Below, one piece after another: positions 9,455 to 19,044 of a stretch of DNA of 64,000 nt. Source of the stretch: Congzhengia sp. (lineage in GTDB: Bacteria > Bacillota > Clostridia > UBA1381 > UBA9506); assembly GCA_045591015.1 (NCBI GenBank), contig JAZNSC010000008.1, positions 28,546 to 92,545 on the forward strand. The letters run 5' to 3'. The translations under genes and the position numbers were made by a program. The first letter of the stretch is position 1, and the number at the start of each line of letters is the position of its first letter. The notes below the pieces were generated by a model. That model saw nothing but the letters and a program-made list of their open reading frames with translations. It did not search any database and was not told the DNA's origin.

Positions 9455-9495
9455 ATTTTATTAAATAAAAAAACTAAGGTATGGGAGAGAACATT

Positions 9496-10602
9496 ATGAG
9501 TGACAGAGTTTTAAAAGTAGGCGTTGTAGGATTAAGACGCGGACGCGACATTGTAAACAGTATCGTTGGCGAACCCAATATGCGCCTTTATGCAATTTGC
9601 GACGCTGATGAAGAAAGATTGGAAGACGCTAAAAAACACTTCGAAGGAAAAGGCGTAGAGGACCTTCAGTGCTTTACATCTTACGAGGAATTTTTAAAGT
9701 CTGATGTAGAGGCTGTAGTAGTAGCATCAGGCGTTGACCGTCACGTTGCTATGTCAATTCAGGCAATGGACGCAGGCAAACACGTTTTAAGTGAAATCCC
9801 TGTAGTAAATACAATAGAAGAAGCAAAAATCCTAAAAGATGCAGTAAAGAGCCACCCCGAACTTAAATACTTCGCAGGCGAAAACTGCTGCTTCTGGAGA
9901 TTTGTAGACGAATGGAAAAAACTCATCGAAAAAGGCTACGTTGGCGACCCTGTATACATTGAGGGTGATTATCTTCACCACACATATACAGAAAAACCCG
10001 GTCCTTTGAGCTTAAATCCCGACGGAACACTTAACTGGAGAGCAGACTTAAATGCTATTCAGTATTTAACCCACGAACTCGGTCCTATTCTTTATATGTT
10101 AGGCGATGACAGAGTTGTAAGCGTATGCGGCTTTGCTCCCGGCTTTGAAACTGTTCCATGGAAGCAGGGCAGAGGTCAGTCCAACGAAGTAGCAATGTTT
10201 AGAACCGCCAAAGGCGCACTTATCAAAATCTTCATTGGTTTTGGTGTTCATTGCGGCTTTGACCATAACTTTGTTGTTTACGGTTCAAAAGGCACAATTG
10301 AAACAGACAGAAGAGAAATGGTAGTAAACGCTCACTCATACGGAAGATTCCACGATATTAAGGACATCAGTCCTGACAAAATCGAGCTTCCTTACACCAC
10401 ACAGTACCCCGGTGAAAAGGACGACGGCCACGGCGGCGCTGATACACAGATGATGAAAGCATTTGCAAAATGTATTATAGAAGACACAAAACCTGCCGTT
10501 GATATTGATATGGGCATCCAGATGTCCATTGCAGGAATTTATGCTCACGAATCAGCCATGAATGGCGGCGTTCCCATAGAAATTCCCAGTTTTGACGACT
10601 AA
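9496..10602 (+). CDS. Gfo/Idh/MocA-family NAD(P)-dependent oxidoreductase, copy 1
   Basis: Rossmann N-terminus 'LKVGVVGLRRGRD'. ATG 9496 (GGGAGAG RBS) aligns with the start of the downstream paralog; ATG 9481 is the alternative start. Confidence 0.8.
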   Translation: MSDRVLKVGVVGLRRGRDIVNSIVGEPNMRLYAICDADEERLEDAKKHFEGKGVEDLQCFTSYEEFLKSDVEAVVVASGVDRHVAMSIQAMDAGKHVLSEIPVVNTIEEAKILKDAVKSHPELKYFAGENCCFWRFVDEWKKLIEKGYVGDPVYIEGDYLHHTYTEKPGPLSLNPDGTLNWRADLNAIQYLTHELGPILYMLGDDRVVSVCGFAPGFETVPWKQGRGQSNEVAMFRTAKGALIKIFIGFGVHCGFDHNFVVYGSKGTIETDRREMVVNAHSYGRFHDIKDISPDKIELPYTTQYPGEKDDGHGGADTQMMKAFAKCIIEDTKPAVDIDMGIQMSIAGIYAHESAMNGGVPIEIPSFDD

Positions 10603-10778: not shown

Positions 10779-11882
10779 ATGAGCGACAGAATTTTAAAAG
10801 TCGGCGTAGTAGGCTTACAGCGCGGACTCAACATTATCAGCAGTATTGTTGGTGAGCCTAACGCTTGCGTATATGCAATTTGCGACGCAGATGAAAAAAG
10901 ACTCGAAGAAGGCAGAAAAAAATTAGAAGAAAAAGGTGCAAAGGACATTAAGTGCTTTACATCTTACGAAGAATTTTTAGCATCAGATGTTGAGGCGGTA
11001 GTAGTAGCAACAGGCGTTGCTCTTCACGTTCCTATGTCAATTCAGGCATTGGATGCAGGCAAGCACGTTTTAAGTGAAATTCCCGTTGTAAATGACATCG
11101 AAGAAGCAAAAATCTTAAAGAATGCAGTTAGAAATCATCCCAACCAGAAATATTTCGCAGGTGAAAACTGCTGCTTCTGGAGATTCGTAGACGAATGGAG
11201 AAAGCTCGTTGAAAAAGGATATGTAGGCAAGCCCGTTCTTGTTGAAGGCGAATACTTACATCACGAAGCAGAAGGAAATACAACACCTCCTGATTATTAT
11301 TACAATCCCGACGGCACAATCGGTTGGAGAGCAGACCTCCATGCTATTCAGTACTTAACACACGAACTCGGTCCTATTCTTTATATGTTGGACGATACAG
11401 TTGTAAGCGTATGCGGCTTCAAACCTGATTTTGAAACAGTAGTTTACAAAGAGGGCAGAGGCGCATCAAACGAATTAGCCGTATTTAAAACAAAGAAGGG
11501 TGCTATTATCAAAATCTTCATCGGTTTTGGTGTAGACGTTGGCTTTGACCACAACTTCATTCTCTATGGTTCAGAGGGCTCACTCGAAACTGACAGAAGA
11601 ACAATGGTAGTTGATGCACATTCATACGGAAGATTCTACCATATGAAAGATATCAAGTCCGGTAGGATTGAACTTCCCTGGACAACAAAATACCCCGGCG
11701 AAAAAGACGACGGACACGGTGGCGCTGATACACAGATGATGAAAGCATTTATTAAATGTATCATCGAAGATACAAAGCCCGCTGTTGATGTTGATATGGG
11801 TATCCAGATGTCAATCGCAGGACTTTACGCTCACGAATCAGCTGTAAAGGGCGGTATTCCGATAGAAATCCCCGAATTTTAA
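10779..11882 (+). CDS. Gfo/Idh/MocA-family NAD(P)-dependent oxidoreductase, copy 2 (tandem paralog)
   Basis: Collinear with copy 1 over its full length (by eye roughly three quarters identical). Long identical blocks include 'KYFAGENCCFWRFVDEW' and 'GHGGADTQMMKAF'. Confidence 0.8.
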   Translation: MSDRILKVGVVGLQRGLNIISSIVGEPNACVYAICDADEKRLEEGRKKLEEKGAKDIKCFTSYEEFLASDVEAVVVATGVALHVPMSIQALDAGKHVLSEIPVVNDIEEAKILKNAVRNHPNQKYFAGENCCFWRFVDEWRKLVEKGYVGKPVLVEGEYLHHEAEGNTTPPDYYYNPDGTIGWRADLHAIQYLTHELGPILYMLDDTVVSVCGFKPDFETVVYKEGRGASNELAVFKTKKGAIIKIFIGFGVDVGFDHNFILYGSEGSLETDRRTMVVDAHSYGRFYHMKDIKSGRIELPWTTKYPGEKDDGHGGADTQMMKAFIKCIIEDTKPAVDVDMGIQMSIAGLYAHESAVKGGIPIEIPEF

Positions 11883-11901
11883 TTAATAATACATACACAA
11901 A

Positions 11902-11939
11902 AACAGACTATAGAGTGACTCTATGGTCTGTTTTTTTTA
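11902..11939 (+). terminator. rho-independent terminator
   Basis: 14-bp stem AACAGACTATAGAG/CTCTATGGTCTGTT (one G-U pair), 3-nt loop, T8 tail. Confidence 0.85.
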
Positions 11940-11987: not shown

Positions 11988-12016
11988 TTGACTTTAGTAG
12001 GTATGTGTGATATACT
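11988..12016 (+). promoter_or_regulatory. sigma-A type promoter of the PqqD/ABC/peptide/kinase operon
   Basis: TTGACT 11988..11993, exactly 17-nt spacer, TATACT 12011..12016. Confidence 0.65.
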
Positions 12017-12070: not shown

Positions 12071-12337
12071 ATGAAAATTAAAGACGGATTTATGTTAAAA
12101 AAAATATTAGATGATTATATAGTTGTCCCTACCGGCGATAATATAGTAGACTTTGCTGTGGCGGTATCTTTAAACGAAACGGGGGCTTTCCTTTGGAGCC
12201 AACTGGAAACAGAAAAAGACATCGAAACTTTAGCAAATGCCTTAGCCGAAGAATACGACGTTACCTACGATGTTGTCATAGATGATGTGGTTGAATTTGC
12301 TGCACTCTTAAAAGCTCACAGCTTTTTAGCAGAATAA
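12071..12337 (+). CDS. PqqD-family protein (RiPP recognition element / peptide chaperone)
   Basis: 88 aa from ATG 12071 (GGGGGAAA RBS). The pattern 'GFMLKKILDDYIVVP...LNETGAFLWSQLE...IETLANALAEEYDV...DVVEFAALLKAHSFL' matches the small winged-helix PqqD/RRE family layout. Confidence 0.7.
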   Translation: MKIKDGFMLKKILDDYIVVPTGDNIVDFAVAVSLNETGAFLWSQLETEKDIETLANALAEEYDVTYDVVIDDVVEFAALLKAHSFLAE

Positions 12338-12362: not shown

Positions 12363-14060
12363 ATGAAAGAGAAAAAATCCGAAACAGGCAAATGGATTTT
12401 CAAACGAATCCGCCCATTTATACCATATATCGTATTTCTTATAGTGGCAGTTATTGCCGTTGCTTACATTAACGTACAGTTCTCACTTGTGTCAAAGAGT
12501 CTTATTGACATTGCGACCAAGCAGACAGAAGGAAGCCTGATGCATAGCGCAATTTTACTTGTTGTGTTGCTTGTACTACAGCTTCTTTTGCAGGTTATAT
12601 ATACACGAGTCCACGTAACAGTAAGCGGAAAACTCGCTATGTCAATCCGCACAGAGCTTTTTTATAAACTCTTGGGCAAGGATTATAGCCGTGTATCACA
12701 GATTCACTCAGGTGAAGTGCTAAACCGCCTCACCAGTGATGTAAGCTTACTGTCAGAAAAAGTTACAGAGATAATTCCTAATGTATTTGCTTTGTTTTCA
12801 ACTGTAGTGTTCAGTTTTGTAGCGCTTTACAGTTTAGACAGAACCTTTGCATTGTTTTGCTTGTGCTGTGGTCCTATTATTTTGATTGCGGCATACATAT
12901 ACAAGAAGAAAATCAAAACCCTTCATTTAAAATGTCGCGAAAGTGACGGCAAGGTACGTTCCCACTTACAGGAAACGATACAAAACTTTATAGTTATCAA
13001 GGCTTTCAAAAAAGAAAACCTTATGAGAAAAAATTCTCAAAAACTCCAACAGGACAATTACCGATTAAATATCAAGCGTACTACAGTTGGTATTATGTCA
13101 AACATACTGTTCTTCCTTGCGATGACGGTTGTTTATTATGCGGCGCTTGCCTGGGGTGTATATAAACTCAGTGTCGGCGCTATCACATTTGGTACTGTTA
13201 CAGCAATGCTTGGACTTGTAGGTCAGCTGCAGTCGCCATTCCGTGAAATTGCATCGGTGCTTCCTCAATGCTATATGGTGCTTGCATCAACCGACAGACT
13301 AATAGAACTTGAGCAAATCCCTGACGATGAAGTAAAAGAAAAGTTCACTCAAGACGACGTATCAAACTTCGAAAAAATTGTTTTTTCCGATGTTGACTTT
13401 TCCTATGGTGCGGTTGACGTTTTAAAGAATATTGATTTCACTGTAAATAAAGGCGAATTCGTTGCTATTTGCGGTGTATCGGGAGCAGGAAAGAGTACTC
13501 TTTCAAAAATTATGCTCTCCGTAATTAAGCCTGATGGCGGAAATGCTTATGTAAAAGCAGGAAGCAAGACAGCAGAATTTTCTGCAGAAACAAGAAAGCT
13601 GTTTTCCTATGTTCCTCAAGGAAATCTGATACTGTCAGGCACAATCAGGGACAACGTTACATTCTGTGATGAAAACCCCGATGAAGAAAAGATAATTAGT
13701 GCGTGCACAGCCGCACAGATTATAGATGATATAAACAAAATGCCCGAGGGCTTTGACACTATCTTGGGCGAAAAAGGTCACGGCATGTCCGAAGGACAGA
13801 TTCAGCGTCTGGCTATAGCGCGAGCGCTTTACCACGATGCACCTGTACTTTTGTTGGACGAAGCCACATCGTCACTTGATATTGCTACAGAGGACAGACT
13901 GTTATCAGCTATCAAATCAATGACCGATAAAACCTGCATCATCATTTCCCACAGAAAAGAAGTTATGCAGGCTTGTGACAAAACTTACATATTGCAGAAT
14001 TGCTCACTTAACGAGCTTATAATATCCCCCCCGGATTTATCAATCCAATCCATGATTTAA
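12363..14060 (+). CDS. ABC exporter half-transporter (N-terminal 6-TM domain + C-terminal NBD), no peptidase domain
   Basis: The TM region starts at residue ~20. Walker A 'GVSGAGKST', signature 'MSEGQIQRLA', Walker B 'VLLLDEATSSLD'. Confidence 0.9.
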   Translation: MKEKKSETGKWIFKRIRPFIPYIVFLIVAVIAVAYINVQFSLVSKSLIDIATKQTEGSLMHSAILLVVLLVLQLLLQVIYTRVHVTVSGKLAMSIRTELFYKLLGKDYSRVSQIHSGEVLNRLTSDVSLLSEKVTEIIPNVFALFSTVVFSFVALYSLDRTFALFCLCCGPIILIAAYIYKKKIKTLHLKCRESDGKVRSHLQETIQNFIVIKAFKKENLMRKNSQKLQQDNYRLNIKRTTVGIMSNILFFLAMTVVYYAALAWGVYKLSVGAITFGTVTAMLGLVGQLQSPFREIASVLPQCYMVLASTDRLIELEQIPDDEVKEKFTQDDVSNFEKIVFSDVDFSYGAVDVLKNIDFTVNKGEFVAICGVSGAGKSTLSKIMLSVIKPDGGNAYVKAGSKTAEFSAETRKLFSYVPQGNLILSGTIRDNVTFCDENPDEEKIISACTAAQIIDDINKMPEGFDTILGEKGHGMSEGQIQRLAIARALYHDAPVLLLDEATSSLDIATEDRLLSAIKSMTDKTCIIISHRKEVMQACDKTYILQNCSLNELIISPPDLSIQSMI

Positions 14061-14074
14061 AGGAGGAAGAAAAA

Positions 14075-15007
14075 ATGGCAAAATTTGGGATATTCAAGAA
14101 AGTTGCCGCTTTAGCTATGGCAGTTGCATTAGTTTTATGCTTTGCTGTTAGCGCTGGTGCTGTTACAGTTACAACATCAACATCATACCTCGATGGTAAC
14201 GAAGGCGATATCTTGGTAGAAGTTACAGTTGCTGGCGAAGAACTCGTAGGCAAAAGCGTAACATACTATGCTTATGACAGCAGCAATAACCCTGTTTACA
14301 TCGATCAGTATGAAGATACTACTGCAGATGGCGCATACTTTGAATTCGCAACAGATGATGCGAACCTCAATACTGGAGTAAAGGTTGGCTACACAGGTGC
14401 AAGTGATGCTACACCCTCACAGATTGACGCATATACAGTAACATGGGGCGATCAGGTTGTTTACATTCCTAACAATGCAGATGTTGCTACAGTAAAATTC
14501 GCAACAACAGCTACATCAGTAGAAGCAATCAGTGCTACAGGCGCAACGGTTGTAGATAAAAACATCGCAGCTGGCAGTGGTTATCTCACAGTTATCTTGG
14601 GAGATATCACAGGCAATGTTACATTAAACGTAACAGTAGGTGCTGAAGTTGTTGTAGAAACTATCGACGCAGCGTTCCTTATTTCTAACGGTTCTGACGA
14701 CCATCACCAATTAGCAGATACAGCTGCTGGCGACAGAAAGTTAACAGTTGTTGGTAGAGTATTAAACGCTGATGAATTTGGTGTCGTTTTAGCGGAAAAA
14801 GACGGTATCGCTACAGGTGAAAAATACCGTGCAATCGCAACACAGGGCGATTTACAGGGTAAAACATCTGAAGGTTACTATGCTATCCAGTTCATCGACG
14901 ATTCTGAAACAGACAAGTGGCTTGATGCAACAAAATCATACGATGTAGCTGCATACGGTGATAATGAAGTAGCAGCACCTAAGACAGTTACAGCTAGAAA
15001 CCAGTAA
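14075..15007 (+). CDS. secreted acidic T/V/A-rich protein of unknown function (signal peptide)
   Basis: AAAGGAGGAAG RBS. Signal peptide 'MAKFGIFKKVAALAMAVALVLCFAVSAGA'. Beta-rich composition; no SLH, LPXTG or lipobox. Confidence 0.7.
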   Translation: MAKFGIFKKVAALAMAVALVLCFAVSAGAVTVTTSTSYLDGNEGDILVEVTVAGEELVGKSVTYYAYDSSNNPVYIDQYEDTTADGAYFEFATDDANLNTGVKVGYTGASDATPSQIDAYTVTWGDQVVYIPNNADVATVKFATTATSVEAISATGATVVDKNIAAGSGYLTVILGDITGNVTLNVTVGAEVVVETIDAAFLISNGSDDHHQLADTAAGDRKLTVVGRVLNADEFGVVLAEKDGIATGEKYRAIATQGDLQGKTSEGYYAIQFIDDSETDKWLDATKSYDVAAYGDNEVAAPKTVTARNQ

Positions 15008-15022
15008 GGAGGTAGTGATATA

Positions 15023-15214
15023 ATGAAGAAGTATGTAAAACCGAGCATTAATGTAATCGAATTACAGCTCAAAGAAAATATCGCTGGCCTTCCTACAACA
15101 GTTTACAGAGGTTCAGCGAGCAGCAAAAACAGTGCTTTGTACAACATCGCACTTTCAACCGAAAAGTCAGGTCTTGAAGAACACAAGTACGGCGAAGACG
15201 GTTGGGTTAGCTAA
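15023..15214 (+). CDS. 63-aa candidate RiPP precursor peptide (lasso-like YxxPxI leader motif, C-terminal Ser)
   Basis: Consensus AAGGAGG SD 9-10 nt upstream of the ATG. Sequence: 'MKKYVKPSINVIELQLKENIAGLPTTVYRGSASSKNSALYNIALSTEKSGLEEHKYGEDGWVS'. It sits between operon genes with 15-nt and 13-nt gaps. Confidence 0.6.
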   Translation: MKKYVKPSINVIELQLKENIAGLPTTVYRGSASSKNSALYNIALSTEKSGLEEHKYGEDGWVS

Positions 15215-15227
15215 TTTCTTGAATATT

Positions 15228-16100
15228 ATGATTTATCGTATTGCAAACAGTTTAATTGAAATTAAAGGTTTACAAAACGAATATTTAGAGCGTAGATTAA
15301 GTGCTTACCTGTCAACAGGTAAGCACTCTGCGCCTGATATCACTGTAACCTTTAGAGAAAACACAGAGATTGAAGTACCGACGGGACAGGAATTTCGTCG
15401 GCTTGATGCGTGGTACTGGATTAAAAGAGACGACGGAGGGTACTCTGCTGTCAAACAAAATTCCAAGTACCGTTTTAATTTAATAAGAATGGATTTTGAC
15501 CAGTTCTGTACAAAAATCGACATCGAGTACCTCAATGTTGATGATTTTTACAGTGATATGACTACAGAACGATTGTTGCACTTGATTTTGGGAGAGGCAT
15601 TTGCTTTTTGCCAGACGGTAAGAGGAAATACAGTTCTTCATTCGGCAGCGGCTTCCTACAAAGGTCAGGCAATGCTGTTTTCGGCGCCGTCCGAAACAGG
15701 AAAATCCACTCACACATCCCTTTGGAAGAAGTTCTATCCTGATGACGTGGTATTGTTTAACGATGACACACCTGTCATTACTGAAATTGACAACGAGTTC
15801 TACGCTTGCGGGACACCCTGGAGCGGAAAGACTGAAATAAATGAAAACGAAATTTTCCCATTAAAAGCTATAGTATTTTTAAAGCAGGGAAAGGAAAATT
15901 CCATAAAAAAATTATCTACAATCGAAGCTGTAGTTAAGCTTTTAAACGAAACCAGAAAGCCCGTTTTTGAGCATTTGATGGATTCGCATATGGAAATAAT
16001 CAAAAAAATAATCGAAAAAACACCTATCTATGAATTGACCTGCAATATTTCAAAAGAAGCAGTTGATTTAGTAAAAGAAACAATATTTAGTGAAGAATAA
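15228..16100 (+). CDS. HprK-related P-loop kinase-like protein (RiPP precursor kinase candidate)
   Basis: 290 aa from ATG 15228. Core 'NTVLHSAAASYKGQAMLFSAPSETGKSTHTSLW' resembles the HPr kinase C-terminal domain/Walker A region found in lasso-cluster kinases. The longer ORF from 15132 would overlap the peptide gene. Confidence 0.6.
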   Translation: MIYRIANSLIEIKGLQNEYLERRLSAYLSTGKHSAPDITVTFRENTEIEVPTGQEFRRLDAWYWIKRDDGGYSAVKQNSKYRFNLIRMDFDQFCTKIDIEYLNVDDFYSDMTTERLLHLILGEAFAFCQTVRGNTVLHSAAASYKGQAMLFSAPSETGKSTHTSLWKKFYPDDVVLFNDDTPVITEIDNEFYACGTPWSGKTEINENEIFPLKAIVFLKQGKENSIKKLSTIEAVVKLLNETRKPVFEHLMDSHMEIIKKIIEKTPIYELTCNISKEAVDLVKETIFSEE

Positions 16101-16133
16101 ACCTTTATGGTTGTGGTAAAGGAGTACAATAAA

Positions 16134-17753
16134 ATGAAAAAAATATTAGCAATGATTTTGTGTATAAGTATGATCTTATCATTGGGCTTTTGTGTAAGCG
16201 CTGCAGGATTTTCGGATTTAGCGGCAGACCACTGGGCATACAATGATATCACAACATTGGTAAATGAAGGCACCATCAACGGTTACACAGATGGAACATT
16301 CAAACCTTCAAAAACAGTAACACGTGCCGAATTTGTAAAAATGATTGGCAAGTGGGACAAAAAATCAGATGTTGAGTTTTCAGACTTATCTCCCGAGCAT
16401 TGGGCTTATGAGTACCTTATGTGGTCAGGTTTAGAGCCTGCAGGAATATCGATTATGCCTGATGTAGAGATAAAGAGATCTGATGTTATAAACCTTATCT
16501 GGAAGAGAAACGGCTCTCCCAAAAATGATAGCGCACCCTCTGTAATTACCAATCAGGGCAAGAATAAAGACGCAGTATCATGGGCATATACAATAGGACT
16601 TATGCAGGGCAACGATGGCTTAAATCTTCGCCTTGACAGCTCATTAACACGTGCAGAAGCTGCAACTCTTATTGTTCGTTCAAGAAAACTCGTAGCAGAA
16701 AACAATAGTGTAAACTTTGTAGATACAGTAAGTGATGAATTGTTGAAATTCACATACGAGGGACTTAACTTAATCGCTGACCCCTATAGACCTAATAAAG
16801 AACTCACATATACAGAATTGGCAAGAATGTCATATAGATTTGGTGCAAACGGTTCAAATGTAGGTTTTGTAGGCGATGACCGTGCAGATGAGCCCATTGA
16901 CCACGTTTATGCACACGAAATGCATATTATGACCTCCAAGGTATGGGGTGACGATATGTACACAATGGAAATGGCAGACAAGCAAGCCACCGTTCAGGAT
17001 GCTATAGGTGCCATTATGCACGGCTTTACAAGACGTGGCACAGCCCCCAGTGATATGGGCAAAATGAACGAATATTATTCTGACTGTAAAGATGTAAACA
17101 AAGGCTTTGAAAACATTTACCTTACATATGCAAACAAAAAAGGCATCAAACTCTTTGCAGGCAGTGAACTCGGCGCAGACGAACCTATTACAGTAAAAAA
17201 ATACACAGCGCTTTTGGTTCAGTTCAATGAAATCGTAGGTCTTGGCGTAAAATACGAAAATGGCGAAATCCAAAACGCAAAAATATGTGCAAGTATTGAT
17301 ACATTACCCGGTGACTACAAAGCATATAAAACAACAATAGATGAAATTCCTATGGAAATCTATAATATGAAAGCAGAGCATATTTCTGCAAAATCAAGAT
17401 TCAACTTCCTCAATCAGTGTGCTTTTGTATTTAACTCATATTTGGGCACTGCAAACAGTCACGCAAAGCAAAACACAGGCTACACAATGAACTATACCTA
17501 CTATCCGTCAGTTTCTTACTTTAACGATAGCGGTAACGTTGTATTTGTAACCAAAATGTCAGTTAACCTACCCGGTGAAAATGTAACATCAATTTCTGTT
17601 GATGAGCTTTTCAAAGACGTTATCACAGAACCCACAGGGAAAACCGTTAAACCGAAGCAAGATTTCTTTGTAGTGTTTGAAACAAACGGAGCATTCATGG
17701 ATGTTTCGCTCGCATACGATGAAGCTCACGTAAAAGCAGTAGTTATTCCTTAA
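16134..17753 (+). CDS. SLH-domain cell-surface protein with unknown C-terminal domain
   Basis: AAGGAG RBS before ATG 16134, followed by a signal peptide. SLH repeats include 'FSDLAADHWAYNDITTLVNEGTINGYTDGTFKPSKTVTRAEF', 'FSDLSPEHWAYEYL' and 'DAVSWAYTIGLMQGNDGLNLRLDSSLTRAEA'. Confidence 0.85.
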   Translation: MKKILAMILCISMILSLGFCVSAAGFSDLAADHWAYNDITTLVNEGTINGYTDGTFKPSKTVTRAEFVKMIGKWDKKSDVEFSDLSPEHWAYEYLMWSGLEPAGISIMPDVEIKRSDVINLIWKRNGSPKNDSAPSVITNQGKNKDAVSWAYTIGLMQGNDGLNLRLDSSLTRAEAATLIVRSRKLVAENNSVNFVDTVSDELLKFTYEGLNLIADPYRPNKELTYTELARMSYRFGANGSNVGFVGDDRADEPIDHVYAHEMHIMTSKVWGDDMYTMEMADKQATVQDAIGAIMHGFTRRGTAPSDMGKMNEYYSDCKDVNKGFENIYLTYANKKGIKLFAGSELGADEPITVKKYTALLVQFNEIVGLGVKYENGEIQNAKICASIDTLPGDYKAYKTTIDEIPMEIYNMKAEHISAKSRFNFLNQCAFVFNSYLGTANSHAKQNTGYTMNYTYYPSVSYFNDSGNVVFVTKMSVNLPGENVTSISVDELFKDVITEPTGKTVKPKQDFFVVFETNGAFMDVSLAYDEAHVKAVVIP

Positions 17754-17782: not shown

Positions 17783-18514
17783 TTGGATAAACAATTTAAC
17801 TTAACAGACCTTTTAAAATTATATTTAAGACATTGGTGGAGAATAGTGCTGGTAATGGTTATATGCGGACTTTTGTCAGGCTTATACACAGCGTTTTTCG
17901 TTCATCCCACATATCAGTCTGCAGGCTCTTTGTATGCTGAAAATACATCAGAACCTGTTGCAGGTACTAATAATGTAAACCTAAGCGAAGTTATGGTACG
18001 TCAGGAGCTTGTAAAAACTTATGCTGAAGTTCTTTCCAGCAATGTTTTCTTGAAGAAAGTAGCAGACAAGGTAAACCTCGGTTATACATACCGCGATATA
18101 CTGAATATGCTTACAATGACAGACAAGAACGAAACCGAAATTCTTGTTATATGTGTTGAATCATACGATCCCCAGCACGCTTATGTTATTGCACAGACGA
18201 TAATAGACTTGGCATCTGAGCAAATCACAACAATCGTAAAAGGCGGTAACGTAAAGGTGCTCGATGAGCCCGAATACCCGATAGCACCCTCATCACCTAA
18301 TCTGGTGAAGAATATCGCTGCCGGACTTTTGGGCGGTTTGATACTTTGTCTTGCGGTAATCTATCTTATAGAGATGCTTGACAATAAAATCAAAGATTCC
18401 GAAATGTTATCAAAGACCTTTAAATATCCGATTTTGGGCGAGGTTCCATACATTGCCTCATCAGCAAACGGAAAAAAAGACGCAAAACAGAAACAAACTG
18501 CACTGAAGAATTAA
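17783..18514 (+). CDS. Wzz/CpsC/YwqC-type polysaccharide chain-length determinant (BY-kinase modulator) protein
   Basis: TTG start with AAGGAGA RBS. N-terminal TM 'WWRIVLVMVICGLLSGLYTAFFV' followed by 'PTYQS', and a C-terminal TM 'IAAGLLGGLILCLAVIYLIE'. Confidence 0.8.
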   Translation: MDKQFNLTDLLKLYLRHWWRIVLVMVICGLLSGLYTAFFVHPTYQSAGSLYAENTSEPVAGTNNVNLSEVMVRQELVKTYAEVLSSNVFLKKVADKVNLGYTYRDILNMLTMTDKNETEILVICVESYDPQHAYVIAQTIIDLASEQITTIVKGGNVKVLDEPEYPIAPSSPNLVKNIAAGLLGGLILCLAVIYLIEMLDNKIKDSEMLSKTFKYPILGEVPYIASSANGKKDAKQKQTALKN

Positions 18515-18530
18515 ATACAATCATAACAAA

Positions 18531-18558
18531 TAAGCCGCGACCCTCCGCGGCTTATTTA
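18531..18558 (+). terminator. rho-independent terminator
   Basis: Stem TAAGCCGCG/CGCGGCTTA followed by TTTAT. Confidence 0.7.
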
Positions 18559-18576
18559 TCTATAAAGGAGAAATAA

Positions 18577-19044
18577 ATGATAAAAAAACTTTTGCTTTAT
18601 ATAGCTATAATATTTGTTTCTGTACAAATATTCAATGCCTCATCACAGGTTGCCACAGAGTCTGCTGAAATGAGTGGCAAAATCACAAAAAAAGTGGTTG
18701 ACGTGATTGCCAAAGTGAAAAAAGTGGAACCGGAGAAAAAAGAAGATTTGTTTAATTCTGTACATCTTGTAATAAGGAAAACGGCGCACTTTGCAGAATA
18801 CGCATTGCTTACGCTGTTGGTGTTTTTGCTTACAAAATGCTATAAGCTCAAAAATTTCTGGTGCTTTTTAATAAGCTTGGGATACTGTATCATTTTTGCT
18901 GCAAGTGATGAGATCCACCAGCTTTTTGTATCGGGGCGAAGCGGAGAAATAAGAGACGTCATACTCGATTTCTGTGGCGGAATCACGGGAAGTGTTTTTG
19001 GATTTTTAGCCTGCAAAATTACCTCCGGAAAAAAAGCGCAATAA
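18577..19044 (+). CDS. VanZ-family membrane protein
   Basis: Four TM segments. 'RKTAHFAEYALLT' and 'DEIHQLFVSGRSGEIRDVILDFCG' are typical VanZ-like motifs. Confidence 0.8.
   Translation: MIKKLLLYIAIIFVSVQIFNASSQVATESAEMSGKITKKVVDVIAKVKKVEPEKKEDLFNSVHLVIRKTAHFAEYALLTLLVFLLTKCYKLKNFWCFLISLGYCIIFAASDEIHQLFVSGRSGEIRDVILDFCGGITGSVFGFLACKITSGKKAQ

Follow-up and report, generated by a model that had tools for sequence, protein, structure and literature searches.

Linear Polyphosphorylated Peptides (LPPs) are made from lppA-K-B-S-D-N clusters in Paenibacillus alginolyticus DSM5050 and other Bacilli (Popov et al., Nat Commun 2026, PMC13381572), and the family was discovered through LppS, a leader peptidase resembling archaeal/SipW-type signal peptidases (PMC13381572). 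LPP precursors carry the motif YxxPxVLxHQxIxFETxxS, the YxxP part of which is fixed by Asn33 and Asp70 of LppB, and LppS cleaves after T-1 only when the leader is presented by LppB (PMC13381572). In the one characterised LPP, LppK polyphosphorylates core Ser3, which adjoins the point of cleavage, rather than the C-terminus, and it does not accept a Thr or Tyr substituted for this Ser; glycosylation of the final product is suspected (PMC13381572). For the lasso peptide paeninodin (PadeA/PadeK; Zhu et al. 2016, as related in PMC7533575 and PMC13381572), the kinase is described as (poly)phosphorylating the C-terminal Ser. Clostridial RiPP recognition elements (RREs) of the type treated here appear in the dataset of Popov et al. 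as "RRE others", with precursors not determined, and not as LPP (PMC13381572).

Here we analyse a 63-aa ORF in the window (the whole 64-kb stretch of Congzhengia DNA that was examined), which is probably the precursor, analogous to LppA, of a Clostridial variant of the LPP RiPP pathway. The closest known system is the LPP family (PMC13381572), of which this locus would be an uncharacterised version from gut Clostridia.

The peptide gene and its homologues

The peptide gene occupies 15023-15214 (+), and its translation reproduces the 63-aa sequence given in a preliminary description, which had proposed a RiPP-type precursor with an N-terminal RRE-binding motif. The peptide has no Cys, as that description stated; the 11 Ser/Thr it counted in the last 41 residues are 10, a trivial discrepancy. 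The Shine-Dalgarno (SD) region (15008..15022, +) has AGGAGGT 9 nt 5′ of the ATG, the longest such match in the operon, and the claim that this SD is the operon's strongest holds by a narrow margin over the AGGAGG of the upstream gene for an Ig-like protein. The kinase gene starts 13 nt downstream of the peptide gene and has no SD. A promoter-like site at 14995-15024, which would make the peptide gene its own transcription unit, was rejected because the last bases of its -10 box fall on the start codon.

Neither Pfam nor NCBIfam returned a match for the peptide. Searching a set of 5.8 billion proteins recovered 53 homologues, a profile search of 1.84 billion proteins gave 54 representative clusters at E<=1e-3, and distinct homologues number 104, all of 48-71 aa. 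In 17 independent loci, with kinase identities of 30-84%, the peptide gene immediately precedes the kinase gene, and this position is fixed even where the kinases are only 30-40% identical. Conserved codons show synonymous changes in the orthologue comparison, and an SD-like site is kept in every orthologue checked. Judged from these comparisons, the ORF is a real, conserved gene under purifying selection, kept in orthologous operons as the preliminary description had expected.

The same description had suggested looking for the N-terminus beside PqqD genes, and a PqqD gene is indeed found in the operon of nearly every related locus reaching far enough upstream; PqqD and ABC genes share an operon with the peptide wherever the fetched sequence extends that way, with one exception (L007). 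More broadly, the kinase occurs in at least 592 genome loci of gut and rumen Clostridia, and PqqD is adjacent in most of the 80 genome loci fetched by kinase. Clostridial type-B loci (kinase-PqqD-S26-ABC) have the gene order K-B-S-D in common with Paenibacillus LPP clusters. No recognisable precursor lies within 7 kb of most type-B loci, and a relaxed leader regular expression applied upstream of their kinases recovered only L016, L031, L037, and L088.

The predicted leader (residues 1-22, MKKYVKPSINVIELQLKENIAG; 15023..15088, +) contains the putative RRE-binding motif Y4-x-x-P7-x-I9, and Y-x-x-P-x-[I/V] is the motif bound by discrete lasso and LPP recognition elements. Across homologues the N-terminus is near-invariant (MKxYxKPxhxVhELxhKENIAA) and the tails are variable; the leader is near-invariant in the 53 homologues and conserved also in distant loci, the pattern of a RiPP-type precursor. 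The predicted core (residues 23-63, LPTTVYRGS...GWVS, with the stop codon; 15089..15214, +) ends in a hypervariable tail, and an [ST]x[YF] motif is found in 98 of 104 peptides. By analogy with LppA, T25/T26 are candidate phosphosites in the place of Ser3, with Y28 and S31 as further candidates. The C-terminal Ser, to which the preliminary description had drawn attention, is present in 46/58 close homologues and in 14/46 more distant ones, among which the residue varies, an outcome that the description had named as counting against its reading; by these alignments, conservation of S63 is confined to the Congzhengia-like clade.

The Ig-like, SLH, and Wzz genes

Directly upstream of the peptide gene, 14075..15007 (+) encodes a 310-aa secreted protein. 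Behind its Sec signal peptide the mature N-terminus reads VTVTTSTSY, and the protein contains three Ig-like domains of beta-sandwich type in tandem. No Pfam or NCBIfam family matched it, and a fold search returned generic Ig and scFv matches only, with no TasA or pilin. Every type-A locus (the type to which the window belongs) has an analogue immediately 5′ of the peptide gene, and a TTTxY-type motif is found at the mature N-terminus in nearly all of them, L009 having an S-rich variant. Downstream of the kinase gene is a gene for an SLH-domain cell-wall-anchored protein (16107..17753, +; likely start Met at 16137), which is similarly placed in nearly all related peptide loci. A Wzz/CpsC-type polysaccharide chain-length determinant follows 3′ of the operon (17783..18514, +); such a gene also comes directly after the Paenibacillus-type LPP cluster L090, and Wzz and BY-kinase genes lie 3′ in L003 and L005, as they do in L090.

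These neighbours bring in an alternative that we consider unlikely: that the peptide is an ABC-exported cell-surface partner working with the Ig-like protein and the SLH anchor, with PqqD as export chaperone and phosphorylation secondary or absent. It could act as a mimic or donor of the Ig-like N-terminal beta-strand, or as a second carrier of a T-x-Y O-glycosylation or recognition motif. The fixed position of the Ig-like gene and the resemblance of its TTTxY-type mature N-terminus to the core T-x-Y speak for it, as do the SLH and Wzz genes downstream in related loci and the AF2 model, which places residues 31-38 of the Ig-like protein in the first strand of domain 1. Matched Ig-like/peptide pairs are more alike than shuffled ones in hand-anchored windows (p~4e-4), and an unbiased 8-mer scan of the pairs gave p=0.065 and 0.017; the covariation is nonetheless weak without hand-picking, and these statistics ignore phylogeny. 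Thr-rich strands ending in Tyr are, moreover, common in beta-sandwich proteins, and such a role leaves unexplained the fixed RRE and kinase, homologous to LppB and LppK. It is also compatible with an LPP-type precursor as its downstream function, and is to that extent not a true alternative.

We speculate, again at low probability, that in the type-A cassette a phosphopeptide pathway of the LPP type is tied to a surface module (Ig-like, SLH, and Wzz), with the core T-x-Y imitating the Ig-like N-terminal strand. If so, the matured peptide would take part in surface assembly, whether by donating a strand, as a cap, or as a glycosylation or attachment sequon common to both partners, and LPP and paeninodin-type peptides would thereby gain their first known function; the pathway would then be seen, in the Congzhengia clade, to run without its signature leader peptidase.

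The kinase-like enzyme, recognition element, and exporter

The gene at 15228..16100 (+) encodes a P-loop kinase-like enzyme of 290 aa, an LppK homologue with a PEPCK/HprK fold that the JGI precomputed annotation places in Pfam PF27840 (ScmC family). Its AF2 model (pLDDT 92) matches PEPCK and HprK/P in Foldseek with probability 1.0, whereas by sequence alone its profile finds only a marginal PEPCK match in the PDB (E=0.31). The bona fide LppK of L090, a sequence that came from a metagenome scan, matches the profile of the window kinase family at 1e-15 and aligns with the window kinase by BLASTP at 24% identity over 190 aa (E=3e-11), and one NCBIfam pattern is common to the two. A tblastn search of PLSDB plasmids with an LppS sequence, seeking LppK, gave no match. 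The P-loop of the window kinase, SAPSETGKST, is a clade-specific variant with Glu (SETGKST) where PEPCK, HprK, and 52 of the 120 relatives listed have Gly, a substitution that could alter kinase activity.

The best NCBIfam match of the enzyme is ScmC (TIGR04249), at 31 bits against a 125-bit cutoff. This resemblance adds no mechanism because ScmC is itself uncharacterised, and we found nothing useful in the literature on SynChlorMet and ScmC.

O-phosphorylation, favoured in the preliminary description, is our best guess for the chemistry because the neighbouring enzyme has, in its predicted model, a PEPCK/HprK-fold P-loop kinase structure. Since LppK accepts neither Thr nor Tyr, Thr25 as a target would need changed specificity. 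There is a small chance that the peptide is a RiPP precursor whose PEPCK-fold enzyme does not phosphorylate Ser/Thr, or for which phosphate is a handle for glycosylation. The enzyme might then carry out carboxylate activation or nucleotide transfer, or enzymes of the polysaccharide locus might glycosylate the peptide, and the product would not be a phosphopeptide. The enzyme does align best with PEPCK, with which it has the H-x-S-A motif and the P-loop in common, its SETGKST loop is clade-specific, and the LPP product is itself unknown, with glycosylation suspected (PMC13381572). Against this, the accounts cited above describe LppK and the paeninodin kinases, the only homologues with tested activity, as Ser O-kinases.

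At the 5′ end, a terminator-like hairpin with a 17-bp stem and a T-run (11899..11935, +) ends the upstream Gfo/Idh/MocA gene and thus marks the boundary of the operon. A candidate promoter lies at 11988..12016 (+), the best sigma-70-like match (TTGACT-17-TATACT, extended TG), although this is a consensus match only; an Rfam scan of the whole 64-kb window at gathering thresholds gave no match. The first gene (12071..12337, +) encodes a PqqD-family RRE of 88 aa (Pfam PqqD, E=3e-14), the LppB analogue; its ORF is listed from 12026 and its homologues begin at MKIKDGF (12071). Among solved structures its best match is LppB (9x8z_B), followed by the lasso RRE TbiB1, and an ungapped alignment sets N35, D72, and F76 against LppB N33, D70, and F74. 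It scores 39 bits with an LppB profile and 15 bits with a paeninodin-type B1 profile.

Very improbable is a lasso precursor, with a leader bound by B1 and cut by B2, cyclisation by an Asn-synthetase-like enzyme, and a C-terminal Ser phosphorylated as in paeninodin. The leader does resemble Firmicute lasso leaders such as MKAWNTPVIETLEINETAA↓G (↓ marking the cut), the PqqD protein weakly matches the lasso_PqqD_Bac model, and within the clade the C-terminal Ser is kept. The lasso analogy drawn in the preliminary description nevertheless fails: the SGGxDS PP-loop motif, which stood in for a domain-level search for the cyclase, is absent from the 64-kb window, and the predicted core LPTTVYRGS has no ring Asp/Glu at positions 7-9. 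In addition, its first residue is not Gly/Ala/Ser/Cys, the 17 related operons show neither B2 nor a conserved gene of cyclase size, and the leader has Tyr where paeninodin-type leaders typically have Trp.

The RRE gene is co-linear with that for an MsbA-like ABC exporter (12363..14060, +), a permease-ATPase fusion of 565 aa analogous to LppD, whose best NCBIfam match is MsbA (E=6e-80, under the equivalog cutoff). As described earlier, it has no C39 domain; the ABC_membrane domain begins at residue 24. An LppS homologue was sought in the 64-kb window and not found (best E=0.33), and LppS is absent also from five Congzhengia-clade operons. An S26 leader peptidase is present in 45 of the kinase loci gathered, scoring 40-60 bits with an LppS profile; carriers are the type-B relatives and the other type-A relatives that reach far enough upstream. 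In most related loci its gene lies between the PqqD and ABC genes and encodes a tail-anchored, SipW/LppS-like protein that lacks a TM segment at its N-terminus and has a Ser/His/Asp layout like that of LppS (S29/H68/D93). For LppN (NTP_transf_5), a profile made from 14 homologues finds nothing in the window and matches only 6 of the Clostridial loci.

From the hydrophobic-x-small site F-E-T of LppA and its cleavage point, we infer cleavage after residue 22. The two patterns would run in parallel, I-A-A↓V-P-T in this peptide family and F-E-T↓x-x-S in LPP, each with a hydrophobic-x-small triplet, the cut, and x-x-hydroxyl. A double-glycine precursor (a class II bacteriocin or quorum peptide) cut by the exporter after A21-G22, which the preliminary description had seen as a double-glycine-like site, can be dismissed with hardly a doubt: the Ala-Gly pair does follow an N-terminal segment of ~20 residues, and the operon does have an ABC exporter, yet Gly22 occurs in 1/58 close homologues, that of the window (Ala-Ala in 52/58; the others AK, AS, or AN), the leader departs from the double-glycine consensus, the exporter lacks the C39 peptidase domain, and relatives encode the SipW-like S26 peptidase for cleavage.

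Proposed pathway and comparison with known systems

If the peptide is an LPP-type precursor, it would be made in excess over the enzymes, a stoichiometry suggested by its strong SD and the lack of one on the kinase gene. The leader would dock as a beta-strand, through Y4-x-x-P7-x-I9, into the PqqD protein (12071-12337), which retains the Asn and Asp with which LppB grips the Pro kink and the Tyr hydroxyl. The kinase (15228-16100) would then use ATP to place at least one phosphate on a hydroxyl residue in the core, most likely Thr25/Thr26, in the conserved block after the leader and in the place of LppA Ser3, with Ser63 as the alternative. Leader removal is predicted near I-A-(A/G)↓(V/L)-P; the S26 peptidase appears to have been lost from the Congzhengia-clade operon, so this step would either depend on an enzyme encoded elsewhere or be dispensable. 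The MsbA-like pump would export the product, which may act at the cell surface; the linkage to Ig-like, SLH, and Wzz genes is plain.

LPPs became known as recently as 2026, from Bacilli; among Clostridia of the gut and rumen, a sister system proves to be widespread. The present family supplies precursors for a subset of the Clostridial loci published as "RRE others, precursor not determined", and it offers natural variants that test the published LPP model: a clade without LppS or LppN, Thr in place of Ser3, and a Gly-to-Glu change in the P-loop. The linkage to Ig-like, SLH, and Wzz genes is a testable lead on peptide function at the cell surface.

In the SynChlorMet cassette, ScmC travels with a PqqD homologue. 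The window resembles it in the best NCBIfam match of its kinase and in the PqqD homologue alongside, and differs in that the cassette is expected to have two radical SAM/SPASM partners, none of which was found among the operon genes scanned with Pfam and NCBIfam. The tapA-sipW-tasA operon encodes the biofilm fibre of Bacillus subtilis. As a lead only, the window's relatives resemble it in having a SipW-type S26 gene beside those for a small partner and a secreted protein of beta-sandwich type, with an N-terminal strand motif common to the Ig-like protein and the peptide. However, the relatives' peptidase has no TM segment at its N-terminus and is a homologue of LppS, a cytoplasm-facing RiPP peptidase, and the Ig-like protein has no detectable TasA similarity.

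The likeness to paeninodin lies in a [Y/W]xxPx[L/V/I] leader with a discrete PqqD-type B1, an HprK-superfamily kinase, an ABC exporter, and the Ser that ends 46/58 of the Congzhengia-clade peptides. On the other side, no B2 or macrolactam synthetase was found at window-type operons, the ring-forming Asp/Glu is absent, the leader of the window has Tyr rather than Trp, and its RRE has Asn where paeninodin RREs have Gly.

The locus departs from LPP in its leader, which past YxxPx[IV] reads ELQLKENIAA in place of VLxHQxIxFET and lacks the FET↓xxS signature; a profile of published LPP leaders gives the window peptide 4-9 bits, with no match past KxYxxPs[VI], and finds nothing significant beyond the YxxP core among all small ORFs. 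Core position 3 is Thr in the window clade and Ser in LPP, the Congzhengia clade has neither LppS nor LppN, and the kinase P-loop has Glu for Gly. The gene order is B-D-[Ig-like]-A-K-[SLH], with the Ig-like and SLH genes as conserved additions, and the hosts are Clostridia (Congzhengia) rather than Bacilli. The YVKPSI stretch of the window leader is identical to that of some LppA leaders, such as MKPYVKPSV, and the remainder differs. Both systems have a linear precursor of ~35-200 aa whose N-terminus is conserved and whose C-terminus is hypervariable. Both also have a discrete RRE of the PqqD type that carries the Asn/Asp pair, homologous LppK kinases, an MsbA-like exporter, no lasso cyclase, and a place in a polysaccharide (capsule/EPS) locus with Wzz adjoining; the window's relatives add to these a SipW-like leader peptidase homologue and the K-B-S-D order.

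A conserved peptide gene within an operon

The ORF at 15023–15214 (+) translates exactly to the 63-aa peptide given in the preliminary description, and the gene is both real and conserved. Among 5.8 billion proteins searched, 53 homologues of 52–71 aa were identified; in their alignment, residues 1–30 (MKKYVKPSINVIELQLKENIAAVPTTVYKG) hardly vary, the middle part is hypervariable, with indels, and at least 90% of sequences end in Ser. Differences at the conserved codons of orthologous genes are synonymous, and an SD-like site is kept in every orthologue checked. Run against 1.84 billion representative proteins, the peptide-family profile matched 54 clusters at E ≤ 1e-3, and some 40 of them are peptides of 48–69 aa with the same N-terminus. 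Long profile matches (proteins P0197, P0202, P0206, P0211, P0212, P0215, and others; 240–600 aa) carry 3–8 tandem repeats of NLPTDIAAIPTTAMRGTDSAALASVATEARLAELDAA, which match profile positions 18–57 (IAA-[IV]-PTT...ALS); by impression these look like phage tail-fibre-type repeat proteins, and the likeness may be convergent.

A strong terminator (11899–11935) and a promoter-like site (11988–12016) precede the operon, in which genes for a PqqD protein (12071–12337), an MsbA-like ABC exporter (12363–14060), a 310-aa secreted protein (14075–15007), a 290-aa P-loop protein (15228–16100), an SLH protein (16107–17753 for the ORF as listed), and Wzz (17783–18514) lie on the same strand as the peptide gene. 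The peptide gene had been credited with the strongest SD in the operon, and its AGGAGGT, nine bases upstream, is the longest match, narrowly ahead of that of the upstream gene; the P-loop protein gene starts 13 nt past the peptide stop codon, with no SD before it. A promoter-like match at 14995–15024 (TAGAAA-18-TATAAT with TG) is ruled out as a promoter of the peptide gene as annotated, its −10 box ending on the start codon, and is probably a chance match in the AT-rich SD region. The listed SLH start at 16107 has no SD; an in-frame Met at 16137, which has an AGGAG SD and opens a typical signal peptide (MKKILAMILCISMILS), seems the likelier start.

In the window, two tandem paralogous Gfo/Idh/MocA oxidoreductase genes (9481–10602 and 10779–11882) lie between metA and the operon. 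The slot just upstream of the cassette is variable among related loci, with one such gene in L001, none in L003, and an MFS transporter in L005. In L003 (11554–12264) and L005 (11573–12277), the gene after Wzz encodes a CpsD-like BY-kinase (AAA_31); L001 and the window (18514–18577) lack it and have VanZ directly after Wzz.

Cassette linkage in the Clostridia

The loci first compared for the peptide have even their housekeeping flanks (tyrS, metY, metA) in common, so they represent one lineage and are no proof of functional linkage. The P-loop protein has 729 homologues. GTDB species genomes contain at least 592 loci for it, exclusively in Clostridia and with the nearest in Congzhengia MAGs, and these loci show two cassette architectures, type A (17 loci) and type B (most others). 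As read from loci reaching far enough upstream, the type-A order is PqqD, an S26 peptidase of ~150 aa, ABC, a secreted Ig-like protein, the peptide, kinase, SLH, and Wzz, with L007 as an exception; the Congzhengia clade, window included, belongs to type A without having the S26 gene, and no S26 homologue is found anywhere in the 64-kb window. The peptide N-terminus recurs across type A, in a small ORF directly upstream of the kinase even where the latter is only 30–40% identical. Type-B loci have the order kinase, PqqD, S26 peptidase, ABC, with no recognisable peptide nearby, and mostly no recognisable precursor gene lies within 7 kb (L015, L017–L025, L027–L028, L033, and others).

The Ig-like gene immediately precedes the peptide gene in every type-A locus (window 14075–15007; L001, L003, L005, L007–L009, L011–L014, L026, L032, L053, L057, L063, and L086). 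The modelled 310-aa protein has three Ig-like sandwiches and no specific structural relative in a fold search; it is more conserved in the signal peptide than in the mature part. In nearly all type-A loci the mature N-terminus, just past the signal-peptide cleavage site, reads TTTxY, resembling the T-x-Y of the peptide core more closely when pairs are matched than when they are shuffled (p~4e-4, hand-anchored windows); an unbiased scan gave p=0.065, and 0.017 on clade representatives, with phylogeny not controlled for, so that co-variation of the two motifs is suggestive only.

Kinase, RRE, and peptidase

Linear Polyphosphorylated Peptides (LPPs) were described in Bacilli by Popov et al. (Nat Commun 2026; PMC13381572), where lppA-K-B-S-D-N encode a precursor, HprK-like kinase, discrete RRE, SipW-like leader peptidase, MsbA-like pump, and NTP transferase, within capsule loci. 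The window encodes homologues of the kinase, RRE, and pump. A confident AF2 model of the P-loop protein (pLDDT 92) matches ATP-dependent PEP carboxykinases and HprK/P in a structure search (probability 1.0), and its family conserves H-S-S-A, the P-loop (S)GTGKST, N-D-D, and G-T-P-W-S-G-K. Scanning metagenome contigs with an LppS alignment yielded a Paenibacillus-type locus, L090 (LppN-LppK-LppB-LppS-LppD-Wzz-BY-kinase), whose LppS shares 97% identity with the Paenibacillus sp. 598K protein. The profile made for the kinase family of the window picks up the L090 LppK at 1e-15, and an alignment of this LppK with the window's kinase itself spans 190 aa at 24% identity (E=3e-11). Both have LHSS, GPSGxGKST, and acidic motifs, and the same NCBIfam pattern (ScmC at ~31 bits, then HprK_rel_A), so the window's protein is an LppK homologue. 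Codon 156 (15693–15695) encodes Glu, giving the P-loop SAPSETGKST; SETGKST occurs in 55 of the 120 listed homologues, all of the window's clade, which excludes a sequencing error. Relatives outside the clade, PEPCK, and HprK have Gly here (SGTGKST), and L005, another locus without the S26 peptidase, retains the Gly.

The best solved-structure match of the window's PqqD is LppB (9x8z_B), whose N33, D70, and F74 align without gaps with N35, D72, and F76; an LppB profile made with Supplementary Data 1 of Popov et al. (PMC13381572) gives it 39 bits and a paeninodin-type B1 profile 15, so the window's PqqD has the features of an LPP-type RRE. The relatives' S26 proteins match archaeal/SipW-type signal peptidase I, have a C-terminal hydrophobic tail and no N-terminal TM segment, and score 40–60 bits against an LppS profile; an LppS counterpart is thus present in relatives only. 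A profile search found LppN neither in the window nor in most type-A loci. Some Clostridial kinase-PqqD-S26 loci that also have an LppN-like transferase encode peptides of 34–45 aa (L031, 6607–6738 and 7556–7690; L037, 899–1003; L088, 11311–11448), with the leader MKKE[YF]xxPExEVVEFExED and a tail rich in Trp, Gly, and Asp; these look like a second precursor family, nearer the canonical LPP organisation.

Leader, candidate phosphosites, and comparison with LPPs

The lasso-like leader of the preliminary description is a real likeness, and Butyrivibrio lasso precursors have a similar one (MKAWNTPVIETLEINETAA ahead of G), but the lasso reading is rejected: ring-forming residues are missing from the core, no cyclase PP-loop motif occurs in the window, and related operons show neither a B2 nor a cyclase gene. 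The double-glycine site also fell, since only the window has Gly at residue 22, where 52 of the 58 close homologues have Ala; the adjoining ABC protein does lack a C39 domain, as stated. The last 41 residues hold ten Ser/Thr on recount, not 11.

The C-terminal Ser had been singled out as the position that lasso-associated HprK-like kinases modify, and it is the phosphosite in paeninodin (Zhu et al. 2016, as cited in PMC7533575 and PMC13381572). The last residue is Ser in 46/58 close homologues and only 14/46 distant ones, against a background frequency of ~0.11, and is selected in the window's clade without being a rule for the family. In LPPs, LppK polyphosphorylates core Ser3 (PMC13381572), and the block I-A-A/V-P-T-T-V-Y of the peptide family parallels F-E-T/x-x-S (slash, cleavage point, predicted in the peptide) in a hydrophobic −3, small −1, and hydroxyl +3. 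Because of this block after the leader, and of [ST]x[YF] in 98/104 peptides, we place Thr25/Thr26 slightly ahead of Ser63 as the better-conserved candidate; since LppK rejects an S3T variant (PMC13381572), their phosphorylation would require a changed specificity.

The LPP leader consensus is YxxPxVLxHQxIxFETxxS, with the Pro kink and Tyr hydroxyl of YxxP held by LppB N33 and D70, and LppS cutting after T-1 requires leader presentation by LppB (PMC13381572). On the peptide, an LPP-leader profile matches only the KxYxxPs[VI] core. The table of Popov et al. places Clostridial SpI+RRE pairs in SSN clusters 4 and 9, under the label "RRE others" and with no precursor determined (PMC13381572), so this branch was seen but not analysed; those RREs start MKIKEGF..., resembling the window's RRE. 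The analysis establishes that the gene is real and conserved, that the cassette is linked, and that RRE, kinase, and pump are homologous to their LPP counterparts. We infer RRE binding, phosphorylation and its site, cleavage position, export, and function of the peptide, and consider it likely to be the precursor in an LPP-like pathway of Clostridia. The window's clade differs from LPPs in having neither signature peptidase nor transferase and only part of the leader consensus, and resembles them in its homologous RRE, kinase, and pump, its linear precursor, and its genomic setting. The peptide would then be a Clostridial variant of a kind described only in 2026 (PMC13381572), of greater interest if the fixed surface-protein module reveals what LPP-like peptides are for.
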